A stretch of 64,000 bases of DNA from an uncultured Gammaproteobacteria bacterium (GTDB taxonomy: Bacteria > Patescibacteriota > Patescibacteriia > UBA11705 > JABHMO01), in NCBI GenBank assembly GCA_964590105.1, contig CAZPYM010000001.1, forward strand, positions 236,746 to 300,745, written 5' to 3'. Below are positions 1 through 14,168 of the stretch, one piece after another. Every line of letters starts with the position of its first letter. The stretch's first letter is position 1. The notes under the pieces are model-generated. The model saw only the letters and a program-made list of their open reading frames with translations. It ran no database searches and had not been told where the DNA came from. The position numbers and the translations under genes are program-made.

Positions 1-1118
1 TTTATATTTTATTAAAGTTTGTTATCCCGCACATTGATAGAATTTTTGCGGAAAACAAAGAAATGCTATTTATTTTTTCAATCGGCAGTTGCTTTGCTAT
101 TGCTTCAATCTTTTATAAACTAAATTTTTCTTTGGAGTTGGGCGCGCTGGCAGCCGGTGTTATTTTGTCAGTTTCACCGTATCAGCGAGAGATTGCTCTA
201 CGCATGCAGTCATTGCGGGATTTCTTCCTGATAATTTTCTTTGTAGTTATGGGCGCTAATGTTCACGCCGGAGATATTCAAAATTCATGGCCTTTAATTA
301 TTGCTTTTTCCTTGTTTATTTTAATTGGTAATCCGATAATTTTGATTTTGGTAATGCGCTGGCTTAATTATACTTTAAAGACCAGTTTTCTGGCTGGACT
401 TACTGTTTCCCAAATCAGCGAATTTTCATTAATTATCATTGGCATGGGCGTGGGGCTCGGCCATCTGCCAAAAGAAATTTTAGCGCCGGCTACAGTTGTC
501 GGAATCATTACAATTACAGTTTCAACATATTATATTACTTATAACCATCAAATTTATAAAATTTTTCAGGCGCCTTTGAGCAAGATTTTTTCCGACAAAA
601 ATCGCAACAAAGAGATTATAGAAATGCCTGAGAAATATGATGTTATTTTATTTGGTTCGCATCGTTTAGGAGGAGGCCTTGTCAAGCAGATGATAAAAAT
701 GAAAATGAAATTCTTGGTGGTTGATCATGATCCTGAGGTTATTCGTGTATTAACAACAAAAAAAATTGCATGTTGGTATGGTTCTGCTGATGATCCATCC
801 TTGATTGACAGTTTACCCTTGGCTGATACCCATCTGGTTATTTCCACTATTCCCGAATTGGACGTCAATCTGACATTGCTCGCGCATGTGAAAAGGGGAC
901 ACAGAAAAATGAATGTTTTGTGTATTGCTAATCAAGTTTCTGACGCGAAAAAATTATACAAAGCCGGCGCTGCCTATGTGATTATGCCGCCATATCTTGG
1001 CCGTCGGTTTATGGTGGATCTGCTGAGGAAAAACAGGTTGAATCATGATAAGTATCGGGAAGAAAGGGAAAAACATATTACCGACTTGCCATATTTAGAC
1101 GATGCGGAATTTTTGTAA
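1..1118 (+). CDS. Cation:proton antiporter-like membrane protein with C-terminal RCK/TrkA-N NAD-binding domain (5'-partial)
   Basis: Reading frame is open to the window start. Hydrophobic TM segments are followed by a Rossmann-like 'VILFGSHRLGGGLVKQM...FLVVDHDPE' RCK domain. Confidence 0.55.
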   Translation, partial: YILLKFVIPHIDRIFAENKEMLFIFSIGSCFAIASIFYKLNFSLELGALAAGVILSVSPYQREIALRMQSLRDFFLIIFFVVMGANVHAGDIQNSWPLIIAFSLFILIGNPIILILVMRWLNYTLKTSFLAGLTVSQISEFSLIIIGMGVGLGHLPKEILAPATVVGIITITVSTYYITYNHQIYKIFQAPLSKIFSDKNRNKEIIEMPEKYDVILFGSHRLGGGLVKQMIKMKMKFLVVDHDPEVIRVLTTKKIACWYGSADDPSLIDSLPLADTHLVISTIPELDVNLTLLAHVKRGHRKMNVLCIANQVSDAKKLYKAGAAYVIMPPYLGRRFMVDLLRKNRLNHDKYREEREKHITDLPYLDDAEFL

Positions 1119-1126
1119 ATTGGCAT

Positions 1127-1155
1127 TTGACAAAATTTATGCTGTTTTCTATAAT
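1127..1155 (+). promoter_or_regulatory. Sigma70-type consensus promoter TTGACA-N17-TATAAT
   Basis: Perfect -35 TTGACA (1127-1132) and -10 TATAAT (1150-1155) with a 17-nt spacer, upstream of the leader ORF, tRNA-His and hisS. Confidence 0.6.
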
Positions 1156-1163
1156 CAATTTAT

Positions 1164-1211
1164 ATGATAATAATTCACGAAATCCATCATATTCACGAAT
1201 GTCCGCGCTAG
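1164..1211 (+). CDS. Candidate His-rich leader peptide (MIIIHEIHHIHECPR, 15 aa), attenuator-type
   Basis: ATG at 1164 is about 9 nt after the -10 box. Four His codons (CAC/CAT) occur in 15 codons and the stop is TAG. It lies immediately upstream of a terminator hairpin and the tRNA-His-hisS genes. No SD is present, so it would be leaderless. Confidence 0.4.
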   Translation: MIIIHEIHHIHECPR

Positions 1212-1242
1212 CTGGTCATTGATTAAGTTAAAAATAAATCAA

Positions 1243-1264
1243 GCCAGCGCAAGCTGGCCTTTTT
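1243..1264 (+). terminator. Intrinsic terminator/attenuator hairpin GCCAGC-GCAA-GCTGGC + CTTTTT
   Basis: Perfect 6-bp GC-rich stem with a GNRA loop and a T-tract. It sits between the promoter/leader ORF and tRNA-His. An upstream GCGCTAGCTGGT segment (1205-1216) can alternatively pair with the 5' arm. Confidence 0.55.
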
Positions 1265-1338
1265 GCAGGATCATGAAAAGACAAATTTACAGAATTCCTA
1301 TCCTTGCCCCTTGTTCCTTATTCCTTGTCCCTAATTCA

Positions 1339-1416
1339 TGGTGGATGTAGCTCAGTTGGTAGAGCATTGGCTTGTGGCGCCAATGGCCGCGGGTTCAAGT
1401 CCCGTCATCCACCCCA
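1339..1416 (+). tRNA. tRNA-His (anticodon GTG) with encoded G-1 and encoded 3' CCA
   Basis: Cloverleaf by eye: G-1 plus GTGGATG acceptor pairing with CATCCAC and C73; D-arm TAGCTCAGTTGGTAGAGC; anticodon stem TTGGC/GCCAA with loop TTGTGGC; T-arm GCGGG TTCAAGT CCCGT; CCA at 1414-1416. Confidence 0.9.
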
Positions 1417-1534: not shown

Positions 1535-2836
1535 ATGAAAAACGAAGCATTGCAAATGGCCAGAGGAGTACGCGATTTCGGGCCGGAAGAAAAAATTGCG
1601 CGCGATAAAATTGTTACTACATTAAAGCAAGTATTTGAATCTTTTGGCTACAACCCAATTGAAACTCCGGTTTTGGAACGATATGAATTATTCGCTTCCA
1701 AGTTTGGAATTGGCCAGGAGTCTGATGCTATGCGAGAAACTTTCAAATTAAAAGATCAGGGGAATCGAGATATTGTTTTGCGAACTGAATTTACAGTTCC
1801 GTTTTCAAGGTTTGTCGGCATGAATCCGCAATTCAAAAAACCATTCAAAAGATATCAGATAGGACAAGTTTTCCGCGACGGACCGATCAAGCTAGGCCGC
1901 TATCGTGAATTTTGGCAGTGTGATGTGGATGTGGTGGGGATTGGTAGTCCGCAGATTGACGCTGAAATCATTCAGTTGACTGTCGAAGCTTTTGCCAAAT
2001 TGGGAATGGAAATCGAATTTCGTTTGAATAACCGAAAAATATTAAACGAAATATTAAAATATGCCGGAATAACAGGAGAGCAGCAAATCTCAGCTATCAT
2101 TGCGATTGACAAACTTGATAAAATTGGAGTTGACGGCGTGAAAGAAGAATTAAAAGAAAAACAGATTGCCGGATCCGCAGTGGACACTATTTTAAAATTA
2201 ATTTCCATCGAAGGAAATAATCAGGGAAAAATTGTTCAGTTGCGAGATGTGTTGTCGGAAGTTGCCGGCTTGGATGAAGTCGAACAGGCCTTGGCTTTTG
2301 TTATTGACAATCAAAATGTGTTTTTCGTGCCTTCTCTGGCGCGCGGATTGGCATATTATACCGGAAATGTTTTTGAGGTTTATTTGAAGGATAGCTCGAA
2401 AATCAGTTCTTCTATTTGCGCCGGTGGCAGATATGACGATATGATCGGCGGATTTTTAGGAACTAATGAGGTTTATCCGGCAGTTGGGATCAGCTTTGGG
2501 CTCGAAACAATTTTTGATGCCATAAAATTAAATCAAAACAATGATGATGTTGTGAAATCAGTTACAGATGTATATTTGTTGGCGTTGGATGATAAATATG
2601 TTAAGAAAATCATGAACATTGCGAAACAACTGCGCCAAGCGGGAATTAAGGCGGATATGGATTATCTGGGACGCAAACTGAAAAAGAATTTAGAATATGC
2701 TGATAGTTATGGCGTCTCATGGGTGATAATGCTGGGAGAAAGTGAAGAAGTTGAGAATAAACTTATGCTGAGGAATATGAAAACCGGCGAACAGGAAAAA
2801 TTGTCAGTTGACCAAATTATTGAAAAATTGCGATAA
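1535..2836 (+). CDS. hisS: Histidyl-tRNA synthetase (class II), archaeal/eukaryal-like type
   Basis: N-terminal 'ARGVRDFGPEE'; 'FKLKDQGNRDIVLRTEFTVPFSRFVGMN'; motif 2 'RYQIGQVFRDGPIKLGRYREFWQCDVDVVG'; C-terminal anticodon-binding domain. 433 aa. Confidence 0.9.
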   Translation: MKNEALQMARGVRDFGPEEKIARDKIVTTLKQVFESFGYNPIETPVLERYELFASKFGIGQESDAMRETFKLKDQGNRDIVLRTEFTVPFSRFVGMNPQFKKPFKRYQIGQVFRDGPIKLGRYREFWQCDVDVVGIGSPQIDAEIIQLTVEAFAKLGMEIEFRLNNRKILNEILKYAGITGEQQISAIIAIDKLDKIGVDGVKEELKEKQIAGSAVDTILKLISIEGNNQGKIVQLRDVLSEVAGLDEVEQALAFVIDNQNVFFVPSLARGLAYYTGNVFEVYLKDSSKISSSICAGGRYDDMIGGFLGTNEVYPAVGISFGLETIFDAIKLNQNNDDVVKSVTDVYLLALDDKYVKKIMNIAKQLRQAGIKADMDYLGRKLKKNLEYADSYGVSWVIMLGESEEVENKLMLRNMKTGEQEKLSVDQIIEKLR

Positions 2837-2994
2837 ATATTGTTACAAAAAATTAGCCAAATTAAGGCTATTTTTTTGTTGTTCTGAACCAATATTTAAT
2901 CTTGATAATTTTTTGGTAAATTAGTGTTGACATGTGGATAAAAAAAAGGTAAGAATTAAATAATAAGTGCAAATAAATATTTAATACAAAGAAT

Positions 2995-4551
2995 ATGATT
3001 ACTTCTGAACAATTATTGGTATTGACAGGTGAAACGTTAAGCATCAATGATATTGTCGATGTTGCGCGTCATAAACGCATGAAGGTTATTATTAGTGAAG
3101 AAACAAAAAGTAAAATGCAAGCTTCCCGAGATTATGTGGCTAAAGTCGCAAATGAAAAAAGAGTTGTCTACGGCGTCACCACTGGTTTCGGAAAATTTAA
3201 AAATGTTGTTATTGCGCAGGATCAATTGTGTCAAATGCAAGAAAATTTAATTATGAGCCACGCTGTGGGCGTGGGTGAGCCGCTCAAAGAAGAAGAAGTC
3301 AGAGCGGCTGTTTTAGTCAGGGCAAATTCTTTGGTAAAGGGTTATTCTGGTGTGAGAATCGAATTGGTTGAAAAACTGCTTGAATTGGTCAATGCGGATA
3401 TTTACCCTTATGTTCCCTGCAAAGGATCAGTCGGCTCAAGCGGCGATTTGGCTCCATTGTCGCATATTATGTTGGTAATTCTTGGTATGGGTGAAGTGAT
3501 AGAAGGCGGCCAGAGAAAACCAAGCAATGAAGTATTGGCAAGGCTTGGGATTCAACCAATCAAGCTGGTGGCAAAGGAAGGCCTGGCGCTTATTAATGGT
3601 ACTTCAGTAATGACAGGTATCGCGGCCTTAGCAATTTTTGACGCAGAATTATTGACCCAAATGGCGGATATCTCCGGCGCAATGACACTTGAGGCTACTA
3701 TGGGTACGGTTGCTGCTTGTCATCATATGGTCCATTTAGCGAGACCTCATATTGGACAGCAAACTGTCGCTGAAAATATTCGTAGGCTATGCGCGGATAG
3801 CGCAATCGGTTATTCACATCGAAACTGTGATCGCGTGCAAGACGCTTATTCTCTTCGTTGTATGCCACAGGTGCATGGGGCTGTCAGGGATTCACTTCGA
3901 CATATTCGATCAGTAGTTGAAATAGAATTAAATTCCGCCACGGATAATCCTTTGATATTTCATGATTATGATTTAATTATTTCTTGTGGAAATTTTCACG
4001 GCGAACCAATTGCTTTTGTCATGGATTATCTTGGAATTGTTATTGCTGAGCTCGGAAATATTGCCGAGCGTCGGATTTGTCGGATGGTTGATCCGGCGAC
4101 CAGCGAAGGTTTGCCGGCGTTTCTTATTCCGCATGAACAGGCCGGCCTTAGCAGCGGTTACATGATTTCTCACTATACGGCGGCCGCAGTAGTTTCAGAA
4201 AATAAAATTTTGGCTCATCCTGCTAGCGTTGATTCGATTCCGACATCAGCAAACCAGGAAGATCATGTCAGTTTTGGAACAATTGCCGCCAGAAAAGCTA
4301 GACAAATTATTGAAAATGTATATGAAGTGATTGGAATTGAATTGATGAGCGCGGCGCAGGGGCTGGATTTTCATAAACCTTTGCTTCCCGGCCTTGGTTG
4401 TCAGGCGGCCTGGGAAATGATCCGTCAGTTTGTGCCATTTTCAGAAAAGGACAAAATTTTATATCAAGATATGCAGACTATCAGAAAAGAAATAATGCTT
4501 GACGGCAAAATTGTTCAGCATGTTGAGCAGAGGATCGGCAAATTGAGTTAA
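2995..4551 (+). CDS. hutH: Histidine ammonia-lyase family (MIO-dependent aromatic amino-acid ammonia-lyase/aminomutase)
   Basis: 518 aa. Signature 'GSVGSSGDLAPLSH' corresponds to the HAL 'GSVGASGDLAPLAH' MIO motif, with Ser-Ser-Gly in place of Ala-Ser-Gly. The protein shows similarity to HAL throughout. Confidence 0.8.
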   Translation: MITSEQLLVLTGETLSINDIVDVARHKRMKVIISEETKSKMQASRDYVAKVANEKRVVYGVTTGFGKFKNVVIAQDQLCQMQENLIMSHAVGVGEPLKEEEVRAAVLVRANSLVKGYSGVRIELVEKLLELVNADIYPYVPCKGSVGSSGDLAPLSHIMLVILGMGEVIEGGQRKPSNEVLARLGIQPIKLVAKEGLALINGTSVMTGIAALAIFDAELLTQMADISGAMTLEATMGTVAACHHMVHLARPHIGQQTVAENIRRLCADSAIGYSHRNCDRVQDAYSLRCMPQVHGAVRDSLRHIRSVVEIELNSATDNPLIFHDYDLIISCGNFHGEPIAFVMDYLGIVIAELGNIAERRICRMVDPATSEGLPAFLIPHEQAGLSSGYMISHYTAAAVVSENKILAHPASVDSIPTSANQEDHVSFGTIAARKARQIIENVYEVIGIELMSAAQGLDFHKPLLPGLGCQAAWEMIRQFVPFSEKDKILYQDMQTIRKEIMLDGKIVQHVEQRIGKLS

Positions 4552-9032: not shown

Positions 9033-10433
9033 ATGGACCAAGAAAAACTTTTACCGCGCGTTTTAAGCGGATTTCGAGATTATCCGCCGGAACAGGTACG
9101 GGCAAGGGATTTGATGATGGACAAGATCAGGCGGACATTCGAGCTGTTTGGTTTTGATCCGCTCGATACCACGACTGTGGAATTCTTGGAAATTCTTACT
9201 GGCAAAATGCCGGGCTGGGATCAGATGGGCTTGTACACTCTTGACAGTTCGATTGAAAGACGGATTGATCGGGGAGATGAAGAAACATTTTGGCTCAAGA
9301 AAACCGGCTTGCGATTTGATCTGACTGTTTCGCTTGCTCGGTATGTTGCGGCCAATCTGGATACTCTACCGCGCCCGTTCAAGCGCTATCAGCTTGGCAA
9401 GGTTTACAGGGCAGAAAGCCCTCAGGAAGGCCGCTATCGCGAGTTTTTCCAGTTTGACGCGGACACCATGTTTGCGCCGAATGTTGTAGCTGACGCAGAA
9501 ATCATCGCGCTCATGGTTGAAACCATGCTGGCGCTGGATCTGCCGCGCTCCATTGTAAAAGTAAATAATCGCAAAATCGCCGAAGGTCTTTCTTCATTGA
9601 TCGGCTTTGAGCCAAGACTTTTGAACGACGTTCTGCGCGTTCTTGACAAGCGCGACAAAGTTGGCCGCGAGGAAATGATCAGTGAGCTACGGCTTGAGCT
9701 TGGCGAAGAAGAAGATGGCAAAAGGGGCCTTGGGCTCGATGAAAAACAAGTGGAAACCCTGATGAACTTTGTCGAATTGCAAGGCGAATTGTCCGACAAA
9801 CTGGCATTTTGCCGAAATTTGTTCAAGGGCATTGAAATCGCCGAGAACGGATTTGATGAACTGGAAAGAATCGCTGAATACCTGAGAGCCATGGGTGTTG
9901 AGCCGGCAATGTGGGAAGTGGACTTTTCCATTGTCCGCGGGCTGGCGTACTACACCGGCCCGGTATTTGAAACGCAATTGCTCGACTTGCCTGAAATCGG
10001 CAGCGTATTTTCCGGTGGGCGGTTTGACAATCTGGTATCACGTTTTTCCAGTGCCAAAGTGCCTGGCACCGGCGCATCAGTGGGCGTTGACCGATTGCTT
10101 GCGGCCTTGCTGAAGCTTGAGAAAATCAAACTGACGCCGACTTGTGTGCAATGCCTGGTCATGGCGCTAACCAGTGATTTGACTGCTGAAATGGCAGTTT
10201 TGGGGCAACTGCGGCGAGCTGGCATCAATGCCATGATCTACACTGGCTCAGATATGTCTTTCAAGGCCCAGTTTGTCAGGGCAGTGAAGTTCAATGTGCC
10301 CTATATAATGATCCTTGGTGACAAGGAATTGGCTGACGGCACTGTAACGGTGCGCGATCTCGCTACTCGCGCCCAGGTAACCATTGCCCGAGATCTTCTC
10401 GTGGAATATTTCAGAGACAAAGGTATGGCTTGA
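9033..10433 (+). CDS. hisS: Second, divergent histidyl-tRNA synthetase paralogue (full length, with anticodon-binding domain), GC-rich
   Basis: 'FRDYPPEQ'; 'LRFDLTVSLARYVAAN'; motif 2 'RYQLGKVYRAESPQEGRYREFFQFDAD'; motif 3 region 'GGRFD'; C-terminal anticodon-binding domain. 466 aa. SD AAGGGGG. About 50-57% GC by inspection against ~33% locally. Confidence 0.8.
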   Translation: MDQEKLLPRVLSGFRDYPPEQVRARDLMMDKIRRTFELFGFDPLDTTTVEFLEILTGKMPGWDQMGLYTLDSSIERRIDRGDEETFWLKKTGLRFDLTVSLARYVAANLDTLPRPFKRYQLGKVYRAESPQEGRYREFFQFDADTMFAPNVVADAEIIALMVETMLALDLPRSIVKVNNRKIAEGLSSLIGFEPRLLNDVLRVLDKRDKVGREEMISELRLELGEEEDGKRGLGLDEKQVETLMNFVELQGELSDKLAFCRNLFKGIEIAENGFDELERIAEYLRAMGVEPAMWEVDFSIVRGLAYYTGPVFETQLLDLPEIGSVFSGGRFDNLVSRFSSAKVPGTGASVGVDRLLAALLKLEKIKLTPTCVQCLVMALTSDLTAEMAVLGQLRRAGINAMIYTGSDMSFKAQFVRAVKFNVPYIMILGDKELADGTVTVRDLATRAQVTIARDLLVEYFRDKGMA

Positions 10434-10480: not shown

Positions 10481-10554
10481 GGGTACGTAGCTCAGTTGGT
10501 TAGAGCAACGGATTGTGGCTCCGTAAGTCGCGGGTTCGATTCCCGTCGTACCCC
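10481..10554 (+). tRNA. tRNA-His (anticodon GTG), second copy; C at -1 (no encoded G-1), C73, no encoded CCA
   Basis: Acceptor GGGTACG/CGTACCC; D-arm TAGCTCAGTTGGTTAGAGC; anticodon stem ACGGA/TCCGT with loop TTGTGGC; T-arm GCGGG TTCGATT CCCGT. Base -1 is C, and CTT follows C73. Confidence 0.85.
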
Positions 10555-10561
10555 CTTCAAT

Positions 10562-13307: not shown

Positions 13308-13335
13308 TTGACAGACAAATATATTTGCTTATAAT
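13308..13335 (+). promoter_or_regulatory. Consensus promoter TTGACA-N16-TATAAT
   Basis: Exact -35 and -10 hexamers. It lies upstream of a structured ~150-nt leader that ends in a terminator. Confidence 0.55.
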
Positions 13336-13342
13336 GAATACA

Positions 13343-13489
13343 TATGGCCTTGCAAAACAGTAATAATTCATGGGAAAAGAAATACCGCAAACACGCAGAC
13401 TGCAGACTGTTTTGTATGGAAAAATTCTGATCGACGTCTAAAATAAGTTTACATACAAAACAGCTCGACATGGCTGTTTTCTTTATTTT
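13343..13489 (+). ncRNA. Candidate cis-regulatory leader / small RNA with mutually exclusive 12-bp stem and terminator
   Basis: CTGTTTTGTATG (13406-13417) is a perfect inverted repeat with CATACAAAACAG (13451-13462). The second arm overlaps the terminator stem ACAGC-N8-GCTGT + TTTTCTTTATTTT (13459-13489). A tandem GCAGACTGCAGACTG lies upstream of the first arm. Confidence 0.35.
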
Positions 13490-13658
13490 ACGAGATAGCT
13501 TTAATACATAGGACAAATATGCAAAGCAAAATTCCCAACAATCAATTATTGCGTCCGGCCGGAACCAACATGACGGATTGCTTTGTGTTTTTAACTCATA
13601 TTATAAACAGAAATCAGTCCATCATGGGCTGATTTCATTGTTTCAAAAGGAGGAAGTC

Positions 13659-14168
13659 ATGGAAAAATCACAGCTTCGCCAGGCAAATGGTCAGGATCTG
13701 ATACACATGGAAGAAATTTTTCAGCTGATTTTTGAAGAAAATCGGAAAAGTTTGATGGCTTACAAAGAGCGGGAAGAATTAAAAGCGGAGATAGTAAACG
13801 GCCAAGCGTTCCTGCTTTTTTTGGACGAAATCCTGGTAGGCTATTGCTCATACAAAATTTGGCAGTCGTGCATCGAAATCATGAGTCTGGTTTTGCGGGC
13901 AAAATATCGACAGCGCGGATATGGATTTACGCTTTGCTATTACGTGGTAAATCTGGCAAAAGAACTTTGGCCCGACAAACTGATTTTGGCCTTGCCAAAT
14001 GACAATTCAGTTGGAATTCTACAGAAGTGTGGTTTTGTAGAGTTTCCAAAAGTGGAATTACCCGATGAGTTGCGGCAGTCATGTGCAGGTTGTCTTGAGT
14101 ATAATGATTTTCCTGACTGCCATTGTCAAACCTTGCGTTTGCCTGGAAAAATTAAAACAATGAAATAA
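13659..14168 (+). CDS. GNAT family N-acetyltransferase with Cys-rich C-terminal tail
   Basis: SD AAAGGAGGA then ATG at 13659. 'QRGYGFTL' acetyl-CoA binding motif. C-terminal 'CAGCLEYNDFPDCHC'. Confidence 0.6.
   Translation: MEKSQLRQANGQDLIHMEEIFQLIFEENRKSLMAYKEREELKAEIVNGQAFLLFLDEILVGYCSYKIWQSCIEIMSLVLRAKYRQRGYGFTLCYYVVNLAKELWPDKLILALPNDNSVGILQKCGFVEFPKVELPDELRQSCAGCLEYNDFPDCHCQTLRLPGKIKTMK

Follow-up and report, generated by a model that had tools for sequence, protein, structure and literature searches.

In this analysis of a 64-kb stretch of DNA from an uncultured member of the Patescibacteria (the window), we found that the region ahead of a tRNA-His-hisS operon carries a copy of what is very probably a family of ribosome-mediated His leader-peptide transcription attenuators that respond to histidine. 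As read from the sequence, the element most likely raises the output of tRNA-His and histidyl-tRNA synthetase (HisRS) when charged tRNA-His is short. It has a short open reading frame (ORF) ahead of the two genes, enrichment for the cognate codons in that ORF, an intrinsic terminator, and an antiterminator that is mutually exclusive with the terminator. We place somewhat less confidence in the prediction that the window's own, weaker copy switches efficiently. The sequence of the region is identical across three independent assemblies. The features of the element and of the two genes predicted to be under its control are as follows.

1127 to 1155, plus strand: sigma-70-type promoter (TTGACA at 1127 to 1132, 17-nucleotide [nt] spacer, TATAAT at 1150 to 1155)
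1164 to 1211, plus strand: leader ORF MIIIHEIHHIHECPR with its TAG stop codon, read from the sequence and matched by homologous ORFs in relatives
1211 to 1216, plus strand: 5' strand of the basal antiterminator helix, GCUGGU, from RNA folds
1219 to 1242, plus strand: apical antiterminator helix (UUGAUU at 1219 to 1224, 12-nt loop, AAUCAA at 1237 to 1242), from RNA folds
1243 to 1264, plus strand: intrinsic terminator, GCCAGC-GCAA-GCUGGC followed by C and UUUUU, from the terminator scan and fold energy
1340 to 1416, plus strand: tRNA-His(GUG), predicted first regulated gene (body 1341 to 1416, G-1 at 1340), from ARAGORN and the Rfam tRNA model (72 bits)
1535 to 2836, plus strand: hisS, predicted second regulated gene, a 433-amino-acid (aa) HisRS (HisRS1), from Pfam and TIGR00442 (364 bits against a cutoff of 287)

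A consensus promoter precedes a His-rich leader ORF

The perfect TTGACA-N17-TATAAT promoter described in a first-pass annotation of this DNA is indeed present, and it is the only exact occurrence in the 64 kb, where shuffles predict 0.01; in the promoter scan, the site at 1127 to 1155 was also the sole 12-of-12 match in the first 12 kb. Direct reading likewise bore out the 15-codon ORF that had been reported to follow it (ATG ATA ATA ATT CAC GAA ATC CAT CAT ATT CAC GAA TGT CCG CGC TAG), in which 4 of the 15 codons are His (CAC at 1176 to 1178, CAT CAT at 1185 to 1190, and CAC at 1194 to 1196), compared to a His share of 1.7% of the codons in the window's long ORFs (P for at least 4 of 14, ~7e-5). 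ARAGORN, Rfam, Pfam, and NCBIfam all agree with the earlier assignment of tRNA-His and then hisS downstream.

The ATG, at 1164, lies 8 nt past the -10 box. With transcription assumed to start at the standard distance of 7 nt past that box, which gives a leader of 0 to 2 nt, the mRNA would be leaderless or would carry a leader of about 2 nt, and there would be no room for a Shine-Dalgarno sequence. The gap is 8 nt in 12 of the lineages compared below and 7 or 9 nt in the other two, a spacing that supports the suggestion made at first that the mRNA is leaderless, and with it the view that the attenuator is effectively so.

We also observed that the window's leader has 5 Ile codons among its 15, two of them AUA. 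This enrichment is not kept in the relatives, as Ile makes up 8% of leader residues overall and one third of those come from the window, and the Ile codons probably represent AT drift rather than Ile sensing.

Two mutually exclusive hairpins share the terminator 5' arm

The GCCAGC-GCAA-GCTGGC sequence with its T-run, previously proposed to be an intrinsic terminator, was terminator-like in our scan, and hairpin-plus-T-run terminators are evidently in use at gene ends of this genome. The 5' arm of this terminator (1243 to 1248) doubles as the 3' strand of an antiterminator, which makes the two hairpins mutually exclusive. In the window, the basal pairing of the antiterminator joins GCUGGU (1211 to 1216) to GCCAGC (1243 to 1248), and a second, apical helix joins UUGAUU (1219 to 1224) to AAUCAA (1237 to 1242). 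The GCUGGU strand starts on the last base of the stop codon, and its GCUGG is the same sequence as that of the terminator 3' arm. The antiterminator strand had been placed essentially correctly in the first-pass annotation; its pairing had not, as the strand forms this two-tier helix rather than a GCGC...CCAGCGC pairing, and the apical helix had been missed.

The window's terminator hairpin has a folding energy of -11 kcal/mol and its antiterminator one of -12.2 kcal/mol. Across the 16 loci that we folded, the stretch that runs from the stop codon through the terminator 5' arm forms a two-tier hairpin of -11 to -18 kcal/mol in every locus, using up the 5' arm, with z scores of -1.7 to -5.4 relative to 300 dinucleotide shuffles each (mean, -3.6; window, -3.8). 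The terminator hairpins have less favorable energies (-7 to -12.6 kcal/mol), and the antiterminator is the minimum free energy (MFE) structure in 11 of the 16 loci when the segment from the stop codon to the terminator is folded alone. Because the register of the apical helix differs among loci, we used per-sequence folds and shuffles for these comparisons; MAFFT alignment and RNAalifold analysis of the antiterminator segment recovered the basal stem, whose six pairs are kept in 13 to 15 of 15 sequences, and missed the apical helix.

The stems also vary in ways that preserve pairing. Changes in the shared arm are coordinated with both of its partners: where it reads CCGGC instead of CCAGC, the terminator partner is GCCGG or still GCUGG (with a G-U pair), and the antiterminator partner is still GCUGG (again with G-U) or CCGG. 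The central terminator pair is A-U in 10 sequences, G-C in 3, and G-U in 2, and the apical stems have 12 different sequences across the lineages, each self-complementary. In several loci, the last two leader codons (often AGU CAG) also pair with the terminator 3' arm, so that the antiterminator spans the whole terminator, and this pairing is probably the reason for the recurrent C-terminal "SQ" of the leader peptides.

The architecture is conserved in 14 lineages

We compared the DNA around relatives of HisRS1, which yielded 13 further distinct lineages and thus, with the window, a set of 14 lineages and 20 loci. The lineages with the same architecture are diverged Patescibacteria whose HisRS proteins are 57 to 70% identical to HisRS1. 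The conserved order is antiporter stop codon, TTGAC(A/T), 17-nt spacer, -10 box, 8 nt (7 to 9), ATG, and an ORF of 14 to 16 codons, followed in all lineages by the stop codon and the GCUGG strand, then by AT-rich spacer DNA, a GC hairpin with its T-run, tRNA-His, and hisS. No variation is seen across 15 aligned homologues in TTGAC or in the TA...T of the -10 box, and the terminator hairpin and its T-run are conserved 26 to 33 nt past the stop codon in all lineages.

The leader peptides of the relatives are MKNYTTIHHIHIHGQ, MLNMNKFHHHYLSQ, MKQMNTIHHHHLSQ, MKNMIVNHHHCHGHK, MKNYKQFHHHHHSEF, MENTYTSKKHHHHQ, MNIKKQQHHHHLHESQ, MRKTTHHIHAHAHLNR, MKKVIAQSHHHHHSLQ, MKNTVKNHHHHKCE, MKKVTAIHHHHHHQ, and MKRIMNKGHHRLSQ, and the homologous ORFs contain 2 to 6 His codons in 14 to 16 codons. 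Among the 13 distinct leaders, His accounts for 56 of 179 non-initiator residues (31%, against the 1.7% of the window's long ORFs), with CAT and CAC interchanging in a ratio of 41:15. The leader frame contains no stops in 192 codons, compared to 25 and 7 in the other two frames, and differences in leader length are whole codons. Within the leader peptide, His alone is conserved, and the non-His codons and the apical helix sequence drift, which is the pattern expected of selection on codon identity and not on the peptide product. The check for conserved His codons and covarying stems suggested in the first-pass annotation thus came out in favor of its His attenuator reading, which is further supported by the conservation of the ORF, its frame, the stop position, the terminator, and the tRNA-His-hisS order in the 14 lineages.

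These comparisons also bear on the view that the unit stands alone as a small gene encoding a His-rich micropeptide (perhaps one that binds metal) or a small RNA (sRNA) with a terminator of its own, and that read-through into the tRNA is incidental. The promoter, the ~100-nt transcript, and the terminator would indeed make a complete unit, His-rich peptides are able to bind metals, and trans-acting attenuator RNAs and leader peptides are reported in Sinorhizobium. However, the His codons alone are conserved in the peptide, the stop codon always adjoins the antiterminator strand, tRNA-His and hisS accompany the unit in every case, and several loci lack room for a tRNA promoter of their own; moreover, a function in trans would supplement attenuation, not substitute for it. 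We therefore consider such an independent gene very unlikely.

In five loci (L082, L177, L178, L003, and L083), the tRNA, counting G-1, starts 14 to 28 nt past the T-run, and a gap of this size leaves no room for a separate tRNA promoter. In the window, the scan detected no promoter-like site in positions 1265 to 1340, between the terminator hairpin and tRNA-His, and nothing promoter-like or terminator-like between tRNA-His and hisS. Because expression of tRNA-His and hisS must thus cross the terminator, it is functionally necessary that this terminator be conditional. The same observations argue against the idea that the hairpin merely terminates the upstream antiporter gene while the promoter drives the tRNA constitutively. 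Although the hairpin is the first terminator-like site past the antiporter stop codon at 1118, the promoter lies between that stop codon and the hairpin, so that its own transcript must cross the hairpin; this order is kept in all 14 lineages, and the scan placed no promoter-like site between the hairpin and the tRNA. Of the explanations that we weighed, this one is the hardest to credit.

Ribosome position and the choice between hairpins

The geometry of the element suggests the following sequence of events for the attenuator. Transcription would begin at, or about 2 nt before, the AUG of the 15-codon ORF, and a ribosome loading on the mRNA's 5' end would trail the polymerase. When His-tRNA-His is plentiful, the ribosome would reach the UAG codon and cover the GCUGGU strand that starts inside it; with this strand masked, GCCAGC (1243 to 1248) would pair with the downstream GCUGGC, the hairpin with its U-run would form, and transcription would end at about 1264, ahead of the tRNA. 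When His-tRNA-His is scarce, the ribosome would stall on the His codons, the two-tier antiterminator (1211 to 1248) would form first and sequester the terminator 5' arm, and the polymerase would read through to give more tRNA-His and HisRS.

We modeled ribosome position by constrained folds in which the blocked RNA extended 13 nt beyond the A-site codon's first base, 13 nt being the standard ribosome-footprinting figure for the extent of the ribosome. With the A-site on the stop codon, the MFE structure holds the terminator in 16 of 16 loci, as anticipated by the earlier proposal that a ribosome at the stop codon lets the terminator form. Moving the A-site to the first His codon gives an MFE structure with the antiterminator in 14 of 16 loci, the two exceptions being L178 and the window. 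The folding under alternative constraints that had been recommended as a check thus shows the switch in most of the family but not in the window, whose terminator wins at three of the four His positions.

The 5' strand of the antiterminator begins within -3 to +6 nt of where the stop codon ends, in all loci, and across loci it lies 20 to 36 nt from the first His codon and 6 to 20 nt from the last. In the window, the His codons are 17 to 35 nt upstream of the GCUGGU strand, so that the geometry fits, but the window's energetics are marginal. Because the equilibrium fold favors the terminator, the case for the window's copy rests on kinetics, as the antiterminator is complete before the terminator 3' arm is transcribed, and on homology with the stronger copies.

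Evidence weighing against an attenuator

Several of our results weigh against this interpretation. In the window, 7 of 727 short ATG-initiated ORFs reach at least 4 His codons, so the leader ORF taken alone is not beyond chance, and its significance rests on the whole architecture that is conserved in 13 other lineages. The MFE of the window's whole leader (1160 to 1270) is ordinary relative to shuffles (z = -0.83), significance being confined to the part that runs from the stop codon to the 5' arm. The window's copy is the least canonical, with His codons interspersed rather than in a run; its terminator, together with small local hairpins, wins by ~2 kcal/mol at the three His positions mentioned above, and the terminator also wins in the free RNA. 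The L178 copy, with only 2 His codons and no apical helix, fails the in silico switch. No conserved protector (1:2) hairpin could be established, and untranslated RNA would for this reason default to read-through in most loci, unlike the trp and his leaders of enterobacteria. The lineages share synteny and so are not fully independent observations, and the element is absent from several close lineages (L004, L175, and the Falkowbacteria loci), with L004 having a bare promoter before its tRNA-His-hisS operon and L175 a different leader. In a separate instance, a short ORF ending in HHH upstream of tRNA-His in the archaeal-like locus L098 had no hairpin and was dismissed as chance.

Some of these points could be taken to mean that a constitutive promoter is followed by a leaky terminator or a processing hairpin and that the His-rich ORF is untranslated, coincidental, or neutral. 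The frequency of His-rich short ORFs in the window, the ordinary fold energy of the whole leader, and the success of the window's terminator in equilibrium folds are all in keeping with this explanation. It does not account for the retention of the frame, the His codons, the stop position, and the -10-to-ATG spacing in 14 lineages while other codons drift, for a His content of 31% of residues, or for the absence of in-frame stops compared to 25 and 7 in the alternative frames. Given these data, a coincidental ORF is very improbable.

A different leader in Falkowbacteria and the question of an RNA sensor

The tRNA-His-hisS operon of Falkowbacteria is preceded by a different leader of ~250 nt with its own terminator (L012, positions 2425 to 2685; L005, 2600 to 2820, which is the same as L084; L014, 2315 to 2570; L097 is the same as L012). 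This leader has a long stem, a GAAGAUG internal motif, an AGCGA bulge, a CAGUGAAAGCC loop, and an invariant ACUACACACCC loop that contains the His codon CAC; of its 70 predicted pairs, 12 have compensatory changes among three sequences. We considered whether it is a T-box, as its shape is Stem-I-like, but it had no Rfam T-box match at E of ≤1. Sister lineages thus regulate the tRNA-His-hisS operon differently, or at least have different sequences preceding it.

The existence of this leader is relevant to the possibility that a translation-independent RNA sensor, either T-box-like (with uncharged tRNA-His on CAU or CAC) or a histidine riboswitch, picks the hairpin in the window and its relatives. 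A long structured, T-box Stem-I-like leader with an invariant CAC before the Falkowbacteria operon lends some weight to this possibility, and T-boxes commonly control hisS in Firmicutes (PMC2965389). In the window, however, an Rfam cmscan of positions 900 to 1700 at E of ≤10 returned only the tRNA and noise, with no match to His_leader (RF00514), T-box (RF00230), or any other leader or riboswitch family, and a search of the whole window at gathering thresholds returned only 4 tRNAs. No structure is conserved upstream of the stop codon, and an RNA that binds tRNA would leave unexplained the intact frame from ATG to stop, the fixed distance from the promoter, and the whole-codon insertions and deletions. 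A sensor of this kind is accordingly a remote prospect, and the ribosome-mediated attenuator remains our preferred interpretation.

Genes surrounding the probable attenuator

The other features that we identified near the attenuator are as follows.

63 to 1118, plus strand: cation/proton antiporter gene of the CPA2 type, 3' part, including a TrkA_N domain (Pfam Na_H_Exchanger and TrkA_N; NCBIfam KefB/KefC-like)
2854 to 2877, plus strand: hairpin TAGCC-AAATTAA-GGCTA (2854 to 2870) and TTTTTTT, right after the hisS stop codon, from the terminator scan
2995 to 4551: hutH, histidine ammonia-lyase
9033 to 10433: second HisRS (HisRS2), 466 aa, 31% identical to HisRS1, both proteins being above the NCBIfam hisS cutoff
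10481 to 10555: another tRNA-His(GTG), carrying C at -1 and C73 and lacking an encoded CCA, followed by a strong terminator (region to 10586)

The antiporter gene is a conserved upstream neighbor, found 5' of related loci as well, and in the window its stop codon lies 9 nt ahead of the -35 box. At the other end, the hairpin and T-run at 2854 to 2877 are the probable end of the tRNA-His-hisS operon, and the scan detected a promoter-like site at 2927, ahead of hutH. We observed hutH downstream of hisS in the window and in most relatives, and L173 and L174 also have a pyruvoyl-type histidine decarboxylase gene (PF02329; L173, positions 2992 to 3777) between hisS and hutH. From its gene content, the locus looks like a histidine-catabolism island, and it resembles the lactobacillus hdc clusters, which are reported to include a hisS gene (PMC5313534).

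Several relatives have partial copies of tRNA-His (5' or 3' fragments) and inserts that separate hisS from the attenuator or the tRNA (L161, 1056 to 1400; L173, 970 to 1270; L081, 2097 to 2125; L171, 1290 to 1320; L164, 1 to 160; L169, 1300 to 1385; L002/L129, 1 to 85). L161 has a GIY-YIG endonuclease ORF followed by a duplicated 3' part of the tRNA, and L173 has two tandem 5' fragments with inserts of ~150 nt. The arrangement of these fragments suggests that mobile elements target this tRNA-His gene.

We also scanned the whole window for a promoter, a start codon within 5 to 10 nt, a short ORF, and a terminator, and found one other candidate only, at 13308 to 13480. This unit has a near-consensus TTGACA-16-TATAAT promoter, 8 nt, an ATG, a region of ~130 nt, and a hairpin with a T-run; it sits upstream of a GNAT acetyltransferase ORF (13578 to 14168) and has no Rfam match. 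We rejected it as a second attenuator, as its 28-codon ORF has no amino acid bias, and it may be a leader or small RNA of unassigned type. A tRNA-Thr region was likewise rejected as a leader, as it holds rpmG. The scan thus gave no evidence for a wider attenuator family within the window.

Ancestry of HisRS1 and a possible second HisRS/tRNA-His pair

The closest relatives of HisRS1, at the 57 to 70% identity given above, are from Kuenenbacteria, Parcubacteria, and metagenome-assembled genomes labeled "Patescibacteria group," and the next closest (42 to 51%) are from Woesearchaeota and other DPANN archaea and from some Falkowbacteria. The best-scoring NCBIfam model for the window's HisRS1 is NF009085, a distinct HisRS model, and alignment of its tRNA-His shows an encoded G-1, C73, and CCA. 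We also observed tRNA-His directly upstream of hisS in many DPANN loci (about 60 loci in L001 to L160; for example, L015, 2840 to 2911; L018, 2848 to 2919; and L116, 2402 to 2473). Because these archaeal loci carry the same pair, tRNA-His-hisS looks like a module common to DPANN and the candidate phyla radiation (CPR), and the shared gene order suggests that the tRNA-synthetase pair was inherited or transferred as a unit.

With HisRS2 and the second tRNA-His, this small genome possibly contains two distinct HisRS/tRNA-His pairs. A homologous HisRS2 (43% identity) is present in the Falkowbacteria locus L005 (998 to 2493), where it precedes a tRNA-His that has C at -1 and A73; there, HisRS2 and its tRNA-His lie directly upstream of the leader, tRNA-His1, and HisRS1. 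It is conceivable, though doubtful, that the attenuator controls a transferable tRNA-His(G-1)/HisRS module, one also found in DPANN, which acts as a backup induced by starvation, with the second, bacterial-type pair (HisRS2/tRNA-His) in the housekeeping role. If the two pairs were partly orthogonal, failure of one, read at the leader His codons, would induce the other, and if the backup proposal were true, a tRNA gene would be autoregulated via its own charging state.

Significance for gene regulation in Patescibacteria

To our knowledge, hardly anything has been learned of how the Patescibacteria (CPR), most of them uncultured, regulate their genes. We found no description of attenuators in Patescibacteria in the literature searched, and nothing relevant in the searchable literature on attenuators ahead of tRNA genes, including pheU and pheV. 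A tRNA gene under an attenuator that reads the charged level of that same tRNA is apparently unusual. A conserved leader-peptide attenuator would imply that CPR bacteria couple translation to transcription, initiate translation on leaderless mRNAs, and monitor tRNA charging. With a promoter that matches the sigma-70 consensus perfectly and a length of just ~140 nt, the element lends itself to direct testing in Escherichia coli or in a cell-free coupled system, which would offer an experimental handle on CPR regulatory logic without cultivation. The neighborhood may itself matter physiologically as a "histidine island" of antiporter, attenuator, tRNA-His, hisS, hutH, a second HisRS/tRNA-His pair, and, in some relatives, histidine decarboxylase.

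Comparison with known attenuators

The first-pass annotation likened the element to hisL and pheM-pheST of E. coli, and the likeness holds for mechanism but not for membership in a sequence family. The hisL leader of the E. coli and Salmonella his operon (Rfam RF00514) also has a short ORF with clustered His codons and a ribosome-selected choice between antiterminator and terminator that senses charged tRNA-His. Unlike the present element, it regulates biosynthetic genes, and its features include a 5' untranslated region, a Shine-Dalgarno sequence, a run of 7 His codons, and a 1:2 protector hairpin. The element described here is effectively leaderless, has 2 to 6 His codons and no conserved protector, and would control a tRNA and a synthetase; the window shows no his biosynthetic genes, and the lack of an Rfam match indicates that there is no sequence or covariance-model similarity to hisL. 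The pheM-pheST attenuator of E. coli is a leader-peptide attenuator in which cognate amino acid codons control an aminoacyl-tRNA synthetase operon. It thus shares with our element a cognate-codon leader peptide over a synthetase operon, but it reads another amino acid, is not leaderless, regulates no tRNA gene, and has no sequence relationship to it.

Naville and Gautheret (2010, PMC2965389) predicted His leader peptides ahead of hisZ and of hisS*, the hisS paralogue of Bacillus. The hisS* case resembles ours in having a short ORF with His codons and a premature terminator before the second HisRS gene of a genome with two; it differs in phylum and is not reported to be leaderless or to include a tRNA gene, and the comparison is one of descriptions, not of leader sequences. 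Leaderless leader peptides occur upstream of aminoacyl-tRNA synthetase and amino acid genes in Deinococcus deserti (PMC4007540), and leaderless polycysteine attenuators of operonic gene expression are described for mycobacteria (bioRxiv 10.1101/834739). In these leaders, as proposed here, the transcription start coincides with the leader AUG, and short cognate-rich ORFs lie upstream of synthetase genes, but they belong to other phyla, read other amino acids, and regulate no tRNA gene, and the mycobacterial Cys attenuator does not necessarily act via an intrinsic terminator. The hisS T-boxes of Firmicutes reach the same outcome, in which low tRNA-His charging leads to antitermination and more HisRS, but they bind the tRNA directly and need no translation, and no T-box model matched here. 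Overall, the proposed mechanism is familiar, that of a classic leader-peptide attenuator of the hisL or pheM-pheST type. The novelty lies in the phylum, in having a tRNA gene as the predicted first target of regulation, and in the link with a HisRS that, outside the CPR, is most closely related to archaeal proteins.

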